Assembly: GCA_963760535.1 (NCBI GenBank)
Contig: CAVXEF010000026.1
Span: 18,416-82,415 of the forward strand
DNA: 64,000 bases
DNA from: an uncultured Phycisphaerales bacterium
GTDB taxonomy: Bacteria; Planctomycetota; Phycisphaerae; Sedimentisphaerales; Anaerobacaceae
Direction: 5' to 3'
In this document: positions 17,720 to 62,641 of the stretch, piece after piece
Layout: the number at the start of each line of letters is the position of its first letter
Position numbering within the stretch: position 1 is the stretch's first letter
Notes under the pieces: generated by a model
What the model saw: the letters and a program-made list of their open reading frames with translations, nothing else
Told to the model about the DNA's origin: nothing
The model's database searches: none
Position numbers and translations under genes: made by a program

Positions 17720-17801
17720 TCCAGCACCAATTGAACCCGAATTGAGAATGCCGTTCTCGTTCGTGGGCAGTATCTTTCACTGGCGGCCAATTGGTGCTGG
17801 A
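17720..17801. mobile_element. MITE-like palindromic element, copy A (80-82 bp, TIR TCCAGCACCAATTG)
   Basis: Perfect terminal inverted repeats CCAGCACCAATTG (17721-17733) and CAATTGGTGCTGG (17788-17800). Identical to copy B at 77 of 80 positions. It forms the last codons and the stop of the HEAT gene. Confidence 0.7.
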
Positions 17802-18918
17802 TTCTCACACAGCAGAACGGCCTTGGCAGCGGCGATACGAACCCGCTTGGACTGATTTTTAAGCAGCTTTGGCAAAAATTCGGTAACGGCAGCCGTCCGA
17901 ATTTGACCTATTGCCAGAGCCGTGAACATAGAAGATCGCTCAACACCTTCAGCGTCCATTCCCTCGTATGAGAATTTTTTCTGAAAACATCAAGCACCTC
18001 AAATTCTCCCTGGGAACTGCCGAGCGCACCGAGCTGTTCTGCCGCCGCCAGCCGAACCTCCAATACCTTATCATCCAACATTGTAATCAGGGCGTTCTTC
18101 GCCTGCTCCGTCCCAAGCGCGCCCATCGCCCTTATACCAATAACTCTGTCGTCTGCATACGCGCTTATCAGCATCGTCCACAGCTTCGGATATACCCTTT
18201 CATCTCTGAGCATTGCCATCGCTTCGGCAACCTGAAACCTGACTTTGTCATCCGAATCTTTGTCGCTTAAGGCCCAATCCAGCAGTTCCAACTGACCCCG
18301 CACCAATTGTTCAGAAGGGAAAGTTTCTGTTCTGGAGATTGATTTTGGTGCAATTGGTGCGGGGCCGCTTTTGCCAAGTATAAGGGCGGCGTTGGCACGA
18401 ACCGTATGGTCCTTGCTGATTATTGCCTTGCGAATGAGTCCAGCACCAATTGAACCCGAATCGAGAATGCCGTTCTCATTCGTGGGCAGTATCTTTCGCT
18501 GGCGGCCAATTGGTGCTGGATAGCCAAGCCTATACATCGCGTAAGCGGCGGCAATTCTGACATTTTCGTCGCGGTCTTTCAAAAGCTGACTTATCTGTTC
18601 TCTCGCAAAACGATACTGCATATCGCCGACAGCCAAAGCCGCTGCGAACCTGACCGGCACAAATTCATCAGTTAACAATCGTTTGACTTTCGGCATCAAT
18701 TCAGTTCGCCGCGTTGCCGCCACAACCTCAATCGCATTGACCCTGATGGAAGAGTCGGTGTCAGCCAAGGCATCCTCAATAATTCGAGCGGCTTCAGGCA
18801 CAAGGCTGTTAACAAGTCTGCTATCAGCCGATACAAGCCTGCTCTTTGAAGGCTCATTGCAACTCGGCAGAAATGCAAAAGCTAAAATTAAAAATGCAAA
18901 ACTGCGGAATTTTTTCAT
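17777..18918 (-). CDS. HEAT/PBS-lyase-repeat lipoprotein carrying three in-frame palindromic-element insertions (apparent frameshift near 17965)
   Basis: Lipobox MKKFRSFAFLILAFAFLPSC. Repeated ...VR..AA.AL... HEAT units. ORFs 17908..18918 and 17777..17959 join across a T6 run (...FEVLDVFRK|..EGMDAEGVERSSMFTALAIGQ...). Confidence 0.7.
18296..18364. mobile_element. MITE-like palindromic element, 69-bp variant (TIR CCCCGCACCAATTG)
   Basis: CCCCGCACCAATTG (18296-18309) and CAATTGGTGCGGGG (18351-18364) are perfect reverse complements. At 69 nt it equals 23 codons, translated as PAPIAPKSISRTETFPSEQLVRG. Confidence 0.6.
18439..18520. mobile_element. MITE-like palindromic element, copy B (80-82 bp, TIR TCCAGCACCAATTG)
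   Basis: Same TIRs as copy A with 3 substitutions in the 80-bp core. It adds exactly 27 codons (PAPIGRQRKILPTNENGILDSGSIGAG) between two HEAT helices. Confidence 0.7.
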
Positions 18919-25289: not shown

Positions 25290-25366
25290 GTTCATAGTTC
25301 GTTGTTCATTGTTCATTGTTCATAGTTTGTTGTCGATGAACCCCCAACAATAAACTATGAACTCAC
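25290..25366. repeat. hairpin-forming heptamer array (GTTCATW units, then complementary AACnnnn units) abutting tRNA-Gly
   Basis: GTTCATA GTTCGTT GTTCATT GTTCATT GTTCATA GTTTGTT GTCGATG | AACCCCC AACAATA AACTATG AACTCAC. GTTCATAGTTT (25318-25328) pairs perfectly with AAACTATGAAC (25352-25362). Confidence 0.7.
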
Positions 25367-29190: not shown

Positions 29191-30555
29191 ATGACGCAAA
29201 TACAAACAGAACCATTAGTGAAGATTAAACGGTTGTTTCCGGCTGTGATTTTGGGGTCAGTTCTGATGTGTCAGGCAGCATTTGCAGGCGAGGGAGGAAC
29301 GACTGCGCCGGCGAAGGCAGCTATAGACTCCGGGGATACCAGTTGGCTGCTGATATCAACCGCATTAGTGATGCTCATGACACCCGGGCTGGCGTTTTTC
29401 TACGGGGGGCTGGTTCGGCGAAAAAATATGCTGTCGGTACTTATGCAGTGCTTTATGGTTCTGTGCATAATAAGTATTCAATGGATAGTATGCGGGTACA
29501 GTTTATCGTTCGGGCCGGATAAGGGTTCTGTAATCGGCGGGCTGGAATGGTTCTTCCTGAAAAGCGTAGGAATGAACCCGAATCCCGACTATGCAGCGAC
29601 AGTGCCGCACGAAGTATTTATGATGTTCCAGATGATGTTTGCAGTGATAACGCCGGCGTTAATCATAGGCGCATTCGCGGAACGGATGAAATTCTCATGC
29701 GTTTTGTATTTTTATGCTGTTGTGGGCGACTTTTGTGTATGACCCGATAGCACACTGGGTATGGGGTGTTGGAGGTTTTTTGAGAAAGATGGGAGCGTTA
29801 GATTTTGCCGGTGGAGCTGTCGTTCATATAAACGCCGGGATGACAGCTTTGGCGGCAGCACTGATATTAAGGAAGCGACAGGGTTATCCGTGCAGTATTT
29901 CTCCTCCGCACAATTTGCCGTTTGCCGTGTTGGGTGCGGCTCTATTATGGTTTGGATGGTTCGGCTTCAACGCCGGCAGTGCCTTGAAGGCGTCGGGCTC
30001 TGGCAGGCAATGCGTTCACCGTAACACACATAGCCGGTGCCGTTGCCGGTGCAACGTGGGCTATGCTCGACTGGCTCAAGTACAAAAAGCCAACGACATT
30101 AGGTATGATTACCGGTGCAGTGGCCGGCCTGGCAGCCATTACCCCAGCATCCGGATTCGTTACGCCTGCGGCGGGCAATATGGATAGGTATAGGAGCAGG
30201 TGTATTTCCGTGGCTGGCAGTTACATATCTTAAAGGGGTGCTGGGTTATGATGATTCATTAGATGCCTTTGGCGTGCATGGAATCGGAGGCATCTGGGGC
30301 GTGATTGCAACAGGTATATGGGCCACAAAGACAATTAACCCGGATGGGGCAAATGGTTTGTTGTACGGTAATCCGGCACAATTGTGGATTCAGGTTAAGG
30401 CGGTTATTGTCACATTAGTGTATTCATTCGTAGTCGGAATCGTGCTGCTGAAGCTGGTGGATGCGGTAATGAAGCTGCGGGTAAGTGAGCACGAGGAGCG
30501 AGTGGGCCTGGATTTGACGCAGCATCGGGAAGCGGCGTATACATTGATTGATTAA
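29191..30555 (+). CDS. amtB: ammonium transporter (three apparent frameshifts)
   Basis: Segments in frames 1,2,3,1 join as ...FAERMKFS|..[18 protein letters not shown]...[11 protein letters not shown]|[25 protein letters not shown]...TPAAG|.[15 protein letters not shown]...[13 protein letters not shown]. Breaks fall near 29705, 29998 and 30178. Confidence 0.85.
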
Positions 30556-38498: not shown

Positions 38499-40186
38499 AT
38501 GCGAATAGCACTGGCACAATTTGACGCGTCGGTCGGTAATATCAAAGGTAATATCGGGAAAATGGAAAAGCTAAGCGCCAAAGCGTACGACTTAGGTGCT
38601 GACATTGTGGTTTTTCCCGAAATGTCGGTGTGCGGTTATCCTCCGGAAGACCTGTTGTTTAAAAAACATTTTCTGGAAGACAACCGCTTGGCGGTGGAAC
38701 GCCTGGCACAAAAGGCCAGTCGTTTGGGGTCTGGGGTCAGGGGTCTGGAGTCTGGGATTACTGTCGTAGCTGGTTTTGCAGAGATAAATGACAAGGGCTG
38801 CTTCAATTCACTTGCTGTATTGCAAGGCGGCAAGATTGCGAGGATTTATCGAAAAAGCATTTTACCTAATTATGGGGTGTTCGACGAAAGGCGATATTTT
38901 CGCCCGGGGACAGAAGCGGTACGAATCACAATAAAAGATATGGCTGTGGTGTTTGCAATCTGTGAAGATATATGGCGTCTGAAGTGGCTGGACAGTTTCC
39001 TTGGAGAAATACCACGGATAGACATAATCATAAATATATCCGCGTCTCCCTTTCACATAGGCAAAATCAGCCAGCGTGAAGAAATTCTCCGCCAATGCGC
39101 AAAGCATTTTAACTGTGCCGTTGCCTATTGCAATTTGGTCGGCGGTCAGGATGAACTTGTTTTTGACGGCCGAAGCATGTTTGTGGATTCATCCGGCAAC
39201 GTTGTTTGCGTAGCTGCGGCGTTTGCAGAAGATATGCTGCTGGCAGATTTAGTAGCAGCGGAGAACGTCTGTCGTCTGTTGCCGGTCGTCGGTCGTCGGT
39301 CGACGAGAGACGAGGGACGAGGGACGAGAGACGAGATTGCCGAGGTTTATAATGCACTGATTCTTGGGGTTAAAGACTACGTACGAAAGAACAATTTTTC
39401 CAAAGTTGTAATCGGCCTCAGTGGTGGAATAGATTCATCTCTTACGGCGGCAATTGCCGCAGGTGCGCTGGGGGCAAAAAATGTCGTCGGCGTAACTATG
39501 CCGTCACAATTTAACAGTCCGGATACTATCAGAGATGCACAAACACTGGCAGACAATCTTGATATTGAGTTTCACGTTTTGCCAATCAAGGCAACGCTGG
39601 AGCAATTTAACGAAGCTGCTGACAAAAATGCCGGGATGGGACAAAACGGGTATAGCCTATGAAAATCTGCAGGCAAGAATTCGAGGATGTATACTTATGT
39701 CTTTGAGCAACCGATACGGTTATCTTGTTTTGACCACCAGCAACAAGAGCGAAACCGCTGTCGGATATGCCACCCTGTATGGTGACACAGCGGGTGGCTT
39801 TGCGGTTTTGAAAGACGTGCCCAAGACAATGGTTTATCAATTGGCTGAGTATGTAAATAAGGTCCATCACGGAGTTATCCCCGCTACGGTAATACAACGA
39901 CCTCCGAGTGCTGAACTAAAGGAAAACCAAAAGGATACAGATTCCCTTCCGGAGTATGACATCCTCGACCGCGTACTTCGTAGTTATGTGGAAGAAGACA
40001 AAGGGGTTTCTGAGTATGGTCAAGGAAGGCTTACCCAAGAATATCGTTAATAAGGTCGTCAGTATGGTGGACCGGAATGAATACAAAAGGAGACAATCTC
40101 CACCGGGGATTAAAATCACTCCGAAAGCATTTGGTAAAGACAGGCGAATGCCCATAACCAACCTCTATACTTCCGAAAGACCTTAG
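38499..40186 (+). CDS. nadE: glutamine-dependent NAD+ synthetase (two apparent frameshifts, two in-frame heptamer arrays)
   Basis: CN-hydrolase domain (MRIALAQ...[12 protein letters not shown]) plus synthetase domain ([24 protein letters not shown]). Joins occur near 39635 (..AGMG|[13 protein letters not shown]) and near 40011 (..DKGVSE|[22 protein letters not shown]). Confidence 0.85.
38719..38760. repeat. heptanucleotide tandem array, unit GGGGTCT (4 good + 2 degenerate units = 42 nt), inside nadE
   Basis: gtcgttt GGGGTCT GGGGTCA GGGGTCT GGAGTCT gggatta. Translated as [14 protein letters not shown]. Confidence 0.7.
39267..39336. repeat. bipartite heptanucleotide array, 5 x GTCNGTY then 5 x GACGAGR, inside nadE
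   Basis: GTCTGTC GTCTGTT GCCGGTC GTCGGTC GTCGGTC | GACGAGA GACGAGG GACGAGG GACGAGA GACGAGA. The arms are complementary at 5 of 7 positions per unit and are centred on GTCGAC. Translated as [23 protein letters not shown]. Confidence 0.8.
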
Positions 40187-49071: not shown

Positions 49072-50116
49072 ATGGCAAATAAAAGGGACTCTGTAAACAT
49101 TCTGGGTATTGAAACCAGTTGTGATGAGACCGCAGCCGCCGTTGTTGCCGACGGCCGAGTTGTTAAATCTTCCGTCGTAGCTTCGCAGACAAAGCTGCAC
49201 GAAAAGTACGGCGGCGTTGTGCCGGAGATTGCCTCTCGCGCTCACATCGAAAAGATATATCCGGTCATAGTTGAGGCGATTTCACAGGCCGAGGTCGGCA
49301 AAGATGATATCGACGCCATTGCAGTCGCGAACCAGCCGGGCCTGACTATCGCTCTGATGGTCGGCGTTACCGCTGCCAAGACCCTCGCATTTGCCTGGCA
49401 AAAGCCATTGATAGCAATAAACCACCTGCACGCACACTTGCAGTCGGCGCTTCTTGGAGCAGGATAGTCCGCAGTTACCAGCCGTGGCTTTGATAGTTTC
49501 AGGTGGACACACCAGTCTTTATGATTACCATTTACCTTTTGAGCCGAGGCTGCTGGGTTCTACGATTGACGATGCCGCGGGTGAAGCCTTCGATAAGGTG
49601 GCAAATATCCTGAAATTATCGTATCCGGGCGGCCCTTCAATCGAAAAGGCGGCTAAACACGGCAACCCCAGAGCAATCAAATTTCCAATATCGATGCTCG
49701 GAAAGGACTCGCTGGATTTTTCATTCAGCGGCATCAAGACCGCTGTGCTGTATTACTGCCGCGGCCAGGATATGAAAGGCGAAAACAAGGTTGATTCGAT
49801 GAGCGCTGAGCAAATCGCCGATATTGCGGCCTCATTTCAGGCGGCAGTGGTCGAAGTGCTCGTTAAAAAAACTCAGCGGGCTGCCGAAAAAATCGGCGCA
49901 AAGACCGTCCTGCTCGGCGGCGGAGTGGCGGCAAACACGCAGCTCAGAATCGCTCTGCAGCGAATGTGCGATTCGAGCACCCCCTCGAAAAAGCTGCTCG
50001 TCGCTCCAAAACAGTATTGCACGGACAATGCGGTTATGATAGCCTCGTTGGCGTATCATAAATTCAAAGCCGGCCTCTTTGCGGATTTGACCCTCGAACC
50101 AAAAGCAACCGGTTAA
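49072..50116 (+). CDS. tsaD: tRNA N6-adenosine threonylcarbamoyltransferase (apparent frameshift near 49456)
   Basis: ILGIETSCDETAAAVV...INHLHAHLQSALL|EQDSPQLPAVALIVSGGHTSLY. An extra G sits at the join. Confidence 0.9.
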
Positions 50117-60199: not shown

Positions 60200-62641
60200 T
60201 TAATCGGGCTTCAAGGCAAGTTTAAGAACCTCGTTTGTGTTTTTGACAAAAGCGAATTTAAGGCCTTTTTTCGCCTCTTTCGGGACTTCAGGGAGGTCTT
60301 TTTTGTTTCTCTGCGGCAGGATAACGGTCTTTATGCCGGCCTGTTTTGCAGCAAGTATCTTTTCCTTTAATCCTCCGATCGGCAAAACCAGTCCGCGAAG
60401 GTTATCTCGCCGGTCATCGCCACCTCAGGCCGGGTTGGTTTGCCTAAAAGCAAGCTGACCAGCGACGTGAACATCGCGACGCCGGCACTCGGGCCGTCCT
60501 TGGGAATTGCACCTGCCGGAACGTGAATGTGGTAGTCGAATTTGCTGAATCTCGACGGCTCGATTTTCAAGTCTTTGGCGTTCGCCTTTACGATGGAAAA
60601 AGCGGTCTGGGCACTTTCCTTCATAACATCTCCGATTTGGCCGGTTAGCTGTAAGCTGCCTTTGCCGGGCATAGATGCCGATTCAATAAAAAGCAGCTCC
60701 CCTCCGACCGGCGTAAAGGCCAACGCAGTAGCAACCCCCGGTATGCCGGCTCGCAGCGCCAGCTCAGGCTCGAACTGCGTAGGTCCCAGAATTTTGGCAA
60801 GGTCCTTTTTGCCTATGGTCGCTCCCTTCTTTCGGCCCTTGGCAATGCCGGTCGCAACAGCCCTGCAAATCGCTGCGATATTTCTTTCGAGATTTCGCAC
60901 GCCGGCCTCTCGCGTATAGCTTTGAATTATTGCAAGTATTGCCTCGTCTTTGATAGTGAGCCGACTTTTATTGAGCCCGTGCTCAGTGAGCTGACGAGGA
61001 ACGAGATATTTTTTCGCAATGTTCAGTTTTTCGCCTTCGGTATAGCCGGGCAGTTCGATAATTTCCATCCTGTCGTGCAGTGCCGGCGGTATCGGCTCAG
61101 CGTAATTGGCGGTGCCGATGAACATCACGCTGGACAAATCGAAGGGCTGGTCAAGATAATGGTCGGTGAAGCTGAAGTTCTGCTCCGGGTCGAGCACCTC
61201 TAAAAGTGCGCTCGCAGGGTCGCCCCGGAAGTCAGCACCGATTTTATCCAGCTCGTCAAGCATAAAGACGGGATTTCTGCTTTCAGCTTTTCTTAATTCC
61301 TGCAGTATTCGCCCCGGCAGTGCTCCGATGTAGGTTCTTCGGTGTCCCCGGATGTCGGCCTCGTCTCTTATTCCGCCGAGCGATATGCGGATGAACTTTC
61401 TTCCTAAAGCCCTCGCAATGGATTTGCCAAGCGATGTCTTGCCGACGCCGGGCGGGCCGATGAAGCAGAGTATTGGACTTTTGCCGGTCGGGTTTAGCTT
61501 TCGAACAGCTAAAAATTCGAGGATGCGCTTTTTGACTTTTTGCAGGTCGTAATGGTCCTGATTCAATATCCGCTGCGCCTTGTTGATGTCAAGATGGTCT
61601 TTTGTTTGAATCGACCAGGGCAGTTCGCAGACCCAGTCGAGATACGTCCGGATGACGCTGTATTCGGGCGAAGCCGGTGGTATCTTGCTTAGCCTCTCTA
61701 ATTCGCGCAGGGCCTCAGCCTGAACTTTTTCGGGCATCCTTGCTTTTTCGATATTTTTCTTGAGTTGCTTTAGCTCTTCGGTTTGGCGGTCGCCCCGTCC
61801 AAGCTCAGATTGGATGGCCTTTAGCTGTTCTTGTAGGAAATATTCCCGCTGACTTTTTTCTATGGATTCTCTGACCCGGCCTTGGATTTTGTGGCTTAAC
61901 TCGAGTACTTCCAGTTGGCTTGCCAGTGCGACGGATATTTTTTCGAGTCGTTTGACCTCGTCAAGCTCTTCAAGCAGTTGCTGTTTTTCGCTTATGGGCA
62001 GGCTGAGATTTGCAGCCAGGAAATCCGCCAGCGCAGATGGGTTTTCTATGTTTTCCAGCAGCACCGTCGCCTCTTCAGGGATATTGGGGCTTAGCGCAAT
62101 CACACGGTTGGCAGCCTGCCGGACACTGACAATAAGGGCCTGCAGATTTTTTGTCATCTTGGTTCCGAAGGTAAGCATCTGCACCTCCGCCTTCAGATAT
62201 GGCTCGGTGGCAACCCTTTCGGTTATCCGAAAGCGCGACTATGCCGTGGACTACAATATGAATCAAATCCTGCGGCATCTTGATAACCTTGAGGATTGTG
62301 GCTGCGGTTCCGACAGAATAAAGGTCGTCGAAGCCTGGGCTGTCGGTTTCGGCGTTGCGCTGCGTGACGAGGCCTATGATGGATTCGTTTGGGGTAGCTT
62401 CGGTAATGAGATGTTTGCTTTTCTGCCGGCCTATCGCCAGTGGTGTCACCGTGCCAGGGTACGCAACGGCGTTTCGAATAGGCAGGATGGGAATTACATC
62501 CGGCAGTTTGAATTCGTGGCTGTTGTCCTTCGGAGAACCGGTCTCGCCTTGCAGATAGTGCTCAACTTCGCCGAGGTCCTCGCCGGAAAGTTCAATCGGC
62601 CATACTCCGTCGGTTACGAATTTTTTAAGCTCATCCGCCAT
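60200..62641 (-). CDS. lon: ATP-dependent Lon protease (two apparent frameshifts)
   Basis: The LON N domain ([14 protein letters not shown]) joins ...IHIVVHGIV|[21 protein letters not shown] near 62234. AAA+ motif GPPGVGKTS. The protease domain is split near 60398: AMTGEIT|[23 protein letters not shown] (CC where CCC is needed). Confidence 0.9.

Follow-up and report, generated by a model that had tools for sequence, protein, structure and literature searches.

The stretch of DNA analysed here, hereafter the window, comprises 64,000 nucleotides of contig CAVXEF010000026.1, from an uncultured Phycisphaerales bacterium of the Planctomycetota. On its minus strand, at 17777..18918, it carries a gene for a putative HEAT-repeat lipoprotein, and in this gene lie three copies of a small element bounded by inverted repeats: copy A (17720..17802), copy B (18439..18521) and a shorter third element (18296..18364). 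These elements, and the family to which they belong, are our subject. The host gene is read as two open reading frames (ORFs; 17908-18918 and 17777-17959), owing to a frameshift of +2 nt. The longer one, 17908-18918(-), encodes 336 amino acids matching the Pfam families HEAT_2 (4e-26), HEAT (6e-22) and HEAT_PBS. Its product begins, like its orthologues, with a signal peptide and a cysteine, which bears out the annotation as a HEAT-repeat lipoprotein proposed in an earlier note on this DNA. The protein has 1433 homologues, and two loci with orthologous genes (L120 and L121) keep the gene order DNA methyltransferase (MTase)-Lnt-HEAT-x-MreB-MreC. The short ORF 17777-17959(-) supplies the missing C-terminus, and both ORFs align to one orthologous protein.

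The 10-mer GCACCAATTG occurs six times in the window, against 0.17 occurrences expected, and forms three inverted pairs between 17724 and 18516. Two of the elements, copies A and B, were found by a repeat finder as a direct repeat (17720-17802 and 18439-18521) of 83 nt with 96% identity and only three differences, all of them transitions. Their near-identity, put forward in the earlier note, is thus real. Gapless extension of the repeat ends with the 83-nt unit, at the inverted termini, and the flanks of the two copies share no similarity that such extension could follow. The inverted arms are perfect, over 15 nt in copy A (17719-17733/17788-17802) and over 14 nt in copy B (18439-18452/18507-18520), again as first described. 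The count of two elements fell short, however, since the third had been overlooked: it measures 69 nt (23 codons), lies in frame and consists of CCCCGCACCAATTG, 41 nt and CAATTGGTGCGGGG, with perfect arms of 14 nt (18296-18309/18351-18364). Its right end contains an internal TTGGTGC-AA-TTGGTGC duplication (18341-18363). These three element pairs are the only perfect close inverted repeats of at least 14 nt in the 64 kb, and a relaxed search allowing up to 4 mismatches found no further copy in the window, nor any in 20 shuffles. Each unit folds better than its shuffles (z between -4.2 and -5.8; -36.9 kcal/mol and z = -5.1 for the third element), essentially by virtue of the terminal stem. The description of the elements as palindromic holds for their termini but not for their interiors, which are not significantly structured. 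Copies A and B are both given the plus orientation, an assignment that rests on the weak family consensus AACC...TCTTTC...GGA; the third element is left without one.

Comparison with orthologues shows that the three elements are insertions, since orthologous HEAT genes of about 85% DNA identity lack all three. In two such loci, L119 and L120, all three sites are empty at the DNA level, and L121 has the same gene map and matches as L120. The segment PAPIGRQRKILPTNENGILDSGSIGAG, encoded by copy B in the loop between two HEAT repeats, and the segment PAPIAPKSISRTETFPSEQLVRG, encoded by the third element, are missing from 17 of 17 aligned orthologous proteins (58-79% identity). Among the 120 best homologues, 118 carry none of the peptide motifs of the element ends that were searched for; the exceptions are the protein of the window itself and P0015, in which a short PAPI...NRCG variant occupies another site. 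At site B the empty sequence of L119 reads GGATTTGCGGA/TAATTTCGGACTC and encodes ADNFG. The orthologues have five residues there (xDxFG) that are missing from the gene of the window, so that copy B encodes 27 residues, as had been stated, but the net gain is 66 nt, or 22 codons, rather than 27 codons. For the same reason deleting the copy does not restore a normal repeat junction, contrary to what had been proposed. At the third element the empty site of the orthologues reads GGCGACCCGC/GTCAG and the net gain is 60 nt.

Copy A is a different case. It had been taken, like copy B, for an in-frame insertion within the gene, but it is not internal: it lies at the 3' end, where it has taken the place of the final two codons together with the stop codon. 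Where the orthologues end in ..AVLQ(Y/C)AK-stop, the protein of the window ends in ..AVLLCENPAPIGRQ-stop, and the new TGA (17777..17779, minus strand), at which ORF 17777-17959(-) terminates, lies inside copy A. The homologous codon of copy B is CGA (Arg), and this T/C change on the coding strand is one of the three differences between the two copies. Two further pairs of filled and empty sites were found among the loci of the wider family described below: L010 against L082 (GGTA/AAAAC/GAGAAAG; net gain 78 nt) and L097 against L057 (TTTGG/CTACCTTGGGGCG/GACAGC; net gain 66 nt). We also considered a microhomology of the empty sites with the termini (e.g. TTGGGGCGG in L057 against TTGGTGCGG), which proved inconsistent across the four pairs.

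What such insertions might do to the protein can be gauged from an AlphaFold2 model based on the orthologue alignment. In this model the HEAT helices have a predicted local distance difference test score (pLDDT) above 90, while two stretches, residues 136-155 from copy B and residues 189-200 from the third element, appear as coil and score below 50. The first lies between helices 118-130 and 157-166, the second between helices 171-183 and 203-218. The element-encoded residues are thus predicted to form disordered surface loops at inter-repeat turns. These turns are tolerant hot spots and the gene is a recurrent sink for small insertions, since unrelated insertions occur there in other orthologues. 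Lineage-specific in-frame insertions lie at the same turns, and after the lipobox, in P0005, P0006, P0008/P0013, P0016 and P0015, and one of the orthologue insertions, ACLPTGRRG, could on back-translation be encoded by a GC-rich palindrome. Exactly at the copy-B site L120 (10485-10574) carries in frame another hairpin, GC-rich, of 90 nt and -52.9 kcal/mol, which is found at the same position in L121 and is missing from L119, a locus that is nearly identical. Downstream of the gene, near L120:11377, there is a related copy. A second palindromic family thus uses the same loop.

The elements of the window belong to a much larger family. A scan of one genome per species with the pattern GCACCAATTG-N35-65-CAATTGGTGC returned at least 118 loci. 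At least some 90 of these, from at least 44 assemblies, are labelled, as deposited with the metagenome-assembled genomes (MAGs), Planctomycetota, Phycisphaerae, Sedimentisphaerales, Phycisphaerales or 'uncultured Pirellulales'. The other matches are chance hits or different repeats, e.g. a REP-like family of Steroidobacteraceae and conserved coding sequence in Bartonella and Microcoleus. Single assemblies have up to 9 loci among the matches listed. In about 640 kb of sequence around the loci we counted 94 copies with perfect 20-nt cores and some 5 real copies with 1-3 mismatches; as the scan required perfect cores, copy numbers are lower bounds. Two outcomes that would have spoken against a mobile element, namely no further copies and orthologues with the same 27 residues but no DNA palindrome, were thus both contradicted: the Planctomycetota assemblies with copies number at least 44 and the copies more than 90, and the residues were seen in none of the orthologues. 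The empty sites that the earlier note had suggested looking for in orthologous HEAT genes exist. Typical members also occur on MAG contigs labelled otherwise (L015 and L056, Candidatus Aegiribacteria; L006, Eubacteriales). The flanks of L015 are 88-97% identical to those of the planctomycete loci L037 and L088, and for these members mis-binning is more likely than horizontal transfer. The terminal-repeat pattern had no match in viral contigs, no Rfam 15 match with E up to 10 overlapped the elements, and searches of the published literature by sequence and by topic found no description of them. The family is apparently new and undescribed.

Its architecture is simple. A terminal inverted repeat of 14 nt, YCCCGCACCAATTG ... 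CAATTGGTGCGGGR, bounds an element of about 79-84 bp. Since the search demanded perfect cores, the conservation of the core is biased by ascertainment, but the four outer pairs are unaffected. At these positions 1-4, outside the searched core, 76-81 of 86 copies are paired, whereas at position 5 pairing falls to 23 of 86, as expected by chance. The outer pairs covary: one is C:G in 53 copies, T:A in 25 and mismatched in 9 (p=6e-13), the second C:G in 68 against A:T in 9 (p=3e-9), p values that carry no correction for relatedness. Half-sites are nearly always paired, giving 123 pairs and only 8 unpaired among 254 half-sites. Between the termini, interiors of 51-55 nt (around 53) are conserved in length and show only a weak consensus, AACCYGAG ... 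TCTTTC-N5-GGA. Their median pairwise identity is 0.55, which we take to be close to chance at such short length, and they fold like shuffles (mean z = -0.25). Three loci are structural variants (L036:5098-5136, L030:7415-7511 and L096:5972-6125); the kinds seen are a mini hairpin with both termini and a 14-nt loop, and a right terminus duplicated 30-69 nt downstream.

Several other candidates were considered and set aside. A single oligomer resembling an uptake sequence is ruled out by the near absence of unpaired half-sites, and an extended palindrome, or a hairpin of the whole element, by interiors that fold no better than shuffles. The GAAAG motif invited a reading as hammerhead or other ribozyme, but there is no Rfam match and the order of motifs is wrong. 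A diversity-generating retroelement, with the two copies as template and variable repeat, was rejected as well: the three transitions that separate A from B show no relation to adenines, and the window ORFs scanned contained no reverse transcriptase.

Where do these elements lie? With ORF calls in the loci that are mechanical and crude, 28 of the 94 copies reach at least 30 nt inside ORFs, 17 run across a called 5' end that has probably been extended too far, and those that remain lie between genes. The in-frame hosts confirmed by Pfam are Mfd, TopA, DnaA, class II ribonucleotide reductase (RNR, nrdJ), an Fe-containing alcohol dehydrogenase (Fe-ADH), a CBS-GGDEF protein and two flavoproteins. 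The element splits UvrB_inter in Mfd and Topoisom_bac in TopA, and sits in the linker of DnaA and in the ATP-cone of the ribonucleotide reductase. All three phases and both orientations are represented, the ends of the encoded peptides being PAPI../..IGAG, PHQL../..NWCG or RTNW../..QLVRG. Orientation relative to transcription is mildly biased (38:21), and the occurrence of both orientations argues for an element that exists at the DNA level. The class with a 75-nt core (81 nt including CCC/GGG, i.e. 27 codons) is enriched in genes, with 7 of 13 against 9 of 49. Together with the net length changes of the filled and empty pairs (60, 66, 66 and 78 nt), this is consistent with frame preservation as a selective filter and not a built-in property of the element.

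These placements bear on an account in which copies A and B are by-products of the HEAT repeats themselves, arising from intragenic duplication, gene conversion or a protein motif rather than from mobile DNA. One might be drawn to it by the fact that all three elements occupy the equivalent position of three HEAT units, after helix B (..AAxAxxxLG), and that no interior of the A/B type was found elsewhere. Yet the identity of 96% is confined to 83 nt although the flanking HEAT units are similar as protein, the segments are missing from orthologues, and elements with these termini occur in unrelated genes as well as in intergenic DNA of many genomes. Inverted termini at the DNA level are moreover required by no protein repeat. 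The claim that protein repeat structure offers no explanation thus stands, given both orientations, all three phases and unrelated proteins, and we hold the by-product account to be highly improbable.

Selection by the host is a more serious alternative. Many intergenic copies are wedged in operons in the order stop codon, element, about 15 nt, start codon, as between gyrA and holA (L108:1554-1636) or between ychF and the next gene (L002:2927-3009; ychF-QC). Of 192 element sides, 24 have a stop codon, read toward the element, directly at the 14-nt terminus, whereas offsets 1-6 give 1-9; such abutting stops are three times more frequent than stops at neighbouring offsets. One might thus suppose that stem and loop length are kept for a host factor and that mobility is only the origin of the elements; a hairpin for RNase III or for mRNA stability in polycistronic transcripts, or the site of a DNA-binding protein, would be candidates. 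That the 14-nt termini and the spacer length are so extremely conserved, beside near-random interiors, would fit, as would orthologous copies with perfect cores that persist between species (L002/L064 and L024/L077/L084). But the conservation of the core in such orthologous pairs is biased by the exact-match search. Host selection is also at odds with the presence of both orientations relative to transcription, with about 30% of the copies lying inside unrelated coding regions in all phases, with the lack of any Rfam family match, with orthologous genes that do well on empty sites, and with recent duplicates such as A/B or those of CAYONQ01 described below. We therefore judge selection by the host to be an improbable basis for the family.

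Mobility itself is suggested by related copies at unrelated places. In assembly CAYONQ01 three related copies (L074:5166-5247, L099:2368-2449 and L113:357-437) have interiors that are 83-93% identical and unrelated flanks. In CAYQKF01 related interiors occur at different loci (L027, L039 and L062). In CAYONQ01 the repeated unit is longer, running past the termini by about 8 nt at either end (ATTGCTTC ... TCGCAATG, inverted), and a GAGATTGCTTCGC motif recurs nearby, which suggests that the element is nested within another small repeat or fused with it.

Taking these results together, we think it likely that the elements form a non-autonomous, non-coding mobile element family of Phycisphaerae-type Planctomycetota, whose in-frame copies are those surviving selection. 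The intragenic copies would then be the survivors that happen to leave the host frame open, to alter the length by multiples of three and to fall in tolerant loops, where they would add a disordered peptide of some 20-27 residues. Copies A and B would stem from one element that was recently duplicated inside the gene, probably by a local hop, and the third element from an independent insertion.

A number of observations weigh against this interpretation. All three copies of the window are in one gene of 1.1 kb and none is in the other 63 kb, so that local hopping or a strongly tolerant or attractive target is needed. No A/B-type interior was found outside the HEAT gene, either in the listed loci of the genome scan or in the metagenome scan; metagenome scans for this interior, and for A/B-type termini with their adjacent bases, gave 0 matches each. 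All four filled and empty pairs (4/4) show 5-19 nt replaced instead of a clean insertion. Of the 59 window ORFs of at least 120 amino acids, 38 of the largest were scanned, and they include no transposase or other mobilising gene; no neighbouring gene recurs either, an all-versus-all clustering of 978 ORFs from the loci giving only housekeeping families. A phmmer search with two Y1 probes found no Y1-HUH-like ORF among 2627 ORFs in about 0.9 Mb, a negative that is uninformative for a single-copy gene. Finally, the termini are far better conserved than the interiors, also at positions outside ascertainment. Conservation of the termini only is not predicted for a purely selfish element in neutral decay, unless turnover is fast.

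How might such elements move? No target-site duplication is consistently enriched in 86 copies for offsets 0-7 and lengths 2-6, the scan giving four weak offset/length signals of 1 to 13 copies each, and none is visible in the four filled and empty comparisons. We also found no distant pairs of half-sites, nor did a transposase turn up in the window or across about 0.64 Mb of flanking sequence. A hairpin of the two termini in single-stranded DNA might be used for mobilisation, by an enzyme that would act in trans and leave no target-site duplication. Such an enzyme would be of the HUH type, like the RAYT transposases that mobilise REPINs, and not a DDE cut-and-paste transposase. We favour this mechanism because of the tiny size, the missing target-site duplication and the covarying ends, and regard it as possible, if still rather doubtful. 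It is less probable, indeed unlikely, that the elements are a distinct hairpin-type class, in which only an invariant 14-bp stem and the loop length would be heritable, moved by a non-DDE and possibly new enzyme and creating new surface loops in essential proteins routinely and class-wide. Such an enzyme might copy or regenerate both ends together, from which perfect covarying termini and the lack of target-site duplications would follow. Were this so, the host would tolerate or even use the elements, and new surface loops in essential proteins would be a routine event across a bacterial class.

The mobile family proposed here can be set beside several known systems. In architecture it is closest to REPINs, doublets of REP sequences (repetitive extragenic palindromes), which form hairpins and are moved by RAYT enzymes, tyrosine (HUH-Y1) transposases (Bertels & Rainey 2011, PMC3116915). 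Both have two invariant short inverted sequences (16-mers in REPINs, 14-mers here), a fixed start-to-start spacing (71 bp in GI REPINs, about 67 bp here), a spacer that is far more variable than the ends, ends that change in a compensatory manner, half-sites that are mainly paired, no coding capacity and multiple dispersed copies per genome (PMC3116915). The differences are clear as well. REPs are self-palindromic units of 20-40 nt, usually tagged GTAG/CGTC, whereas YCCCGCACCAATTG has only the 6-bp palindrome CAATTG and no tag. REPIN spacers keep hairpin potential while the interiors here are unstructured, and REPINs are essentially extragenic whereas about 30% of the copies here are intragenic, in frame. 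Nor did a RAYT turn up among the ORFs of the loci that were probed.

In behaviour the family is closest to Rickettsia palindromic elements (RPEs) and to the intragenic REPs of Opitutus terrae and others. The comparison with RPEs, made in the earlier note, holds for this behaviour, i.e. for placement both in frame and between genes. RPE-1 to RPE-10 are small palindromic repeats found between genes and inside ORFs, in frame, where they encode function-compatible peptides in unrelated housekeeping genes (PMC10969869; Di Nocera 2013, PMC3733652), much as the copies here lie in frame in dnaA, topA, mfd and nrdJ. Going by their description, however, RPEs stand apart, with about 100-150 bp and both the sequence and the encoded peptide conserved, where here only the 14-nt termini are. 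The present elements moreover give three different peptide pairs according to phase, and their hosts are free-living bacteria of another phylum. Membership of the RPE family is unlikely, because the interiors are not conserved and the peptides differ by phase. In Opitutus terrae, of the Verrucomicrobia and hence the PVC superphylum, GTAG/CGTC REPs form dimers inside genes, where they code for 20-30 amino acids (Di Nocera et al. 2013, PMC3733652). Intragenic REPs are often found in replication and repair genes (uvrA, uvrB, dnaE), sometimes with two insertions per ORF (PMC3733652). Here, likewise, the hosts include mfd, topA and dnaA, and one ORF has three copies; yet the GTAG/CGTC tag is lacking and the unit is one long-loop hairpin with 14-nt ends, not a dimer of short stem-loops.

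The elements had also been called similar to MITEs, miniature transposable elements with inverted repeats. Like the classical ones (Correia/NEMIS, ERIC, RUP), they are short and non-coding, have terminal inverted repeats as their bounds, occur in multiple copies and are now and then fused to ORFs in frame (PMC10969869). The inverted termini and the dispersed copies thus agree with this name. But there is no target-site duplication at any offset, and for this reason they are not MITEs in the strict sense; no parent insertion sequence with matching ends was found in the window and about 0.64 Mb of flanks, about 81 bp is unusually small, and interiors are unrelated between most copies. The architecture is, as said, nearer to that of REPINs. 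Integron attC sites are structure-defined recombination sites of 57-141 bp, with conserved inverted ends and a variable interior. Their R''/R' core (RYYYAAC/GTTRRRY) is absent here, with no GTTRRRY at the outer ends of YCCCGCACCAATTG / CAATTGGTGCGGGR, and there are no cassette arrays and no nearby integrase, while copies are placed inside genes.

In-frame palindromic insertions have so far been seen mostly as a peculiarity of Rickettsia and of a few REP-rich genomes. The same behaviour is now found in free-living and environmentally abundant Planctomycetota, in genes such as dnaA, topA, mfd and that of ribonucleotide reductase. The family thereby offers a large natural collection of peptide-loop insertions, in which the tolerance and the recruitment of new segments by proteins can be studied. 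A REPIN-like architecture with no known transposase also turns the search for the mobilising enzyme into a concrete question, and the interest of the family would be higher if the mechanism proves new. For practical purposes, a pair of 14-mers at fixed spacing is a simple marker for annotating and quality-checking planctomycete MAGs, in which such repeats break assemblies and inflate the number of 'hypothetical' insertions.

Assembly quality also matters for the window itself. The frameshift of the HEAT gene (17940..17962, minus strand) consists, at columns 1060-1080 of the DNA alignment, of two extra nt relative to orthologues, near 17945-17960 and beside an A6/T7 run. It is probably an assembly indel and not biology, because at least four other conserved genes of the window are split likewise. 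The genes for the ammonium transporter (amt, 29191-30555), tsaD (49072-50116), NAD synthase (nadE, 38499-40050) and lon (60367-62641) are each broken into adjacent ORFs on the same strand, in three pieces for the ammonium transporter (Pfam profile positions 2-125, 120-221 and 275-399) and in two for each of the others. These splits point to assembly indel errors, and widespread pseudogenes are less likely. One might then ask whether the elements too are artefacts, produced where an error-prone metagenome assembly joined reads wrongly, or used chimeric ones, at sequence that forms hairpins. The several frameshift-type errors in the window, and contig L019 with copies at both of its ends, would be in line with this. 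However, the same architecture recurs across at least 44 independent assemblies, for which different assemblers were used, the reading frames stay open in conserved genes, and copies A, B and the third element differ among themselves by substitutions, not by indels. The chance that the elements are artefacts seems to us very small.

One other repeat of the window deserves mention. Upstream of the PCMT gene, in intergenic DNA at 25290-25362, lies an AT-rich cluster of imperfect inverted and direct repeats with GTTCATAGTT.. units, which is unrelated to the element family.

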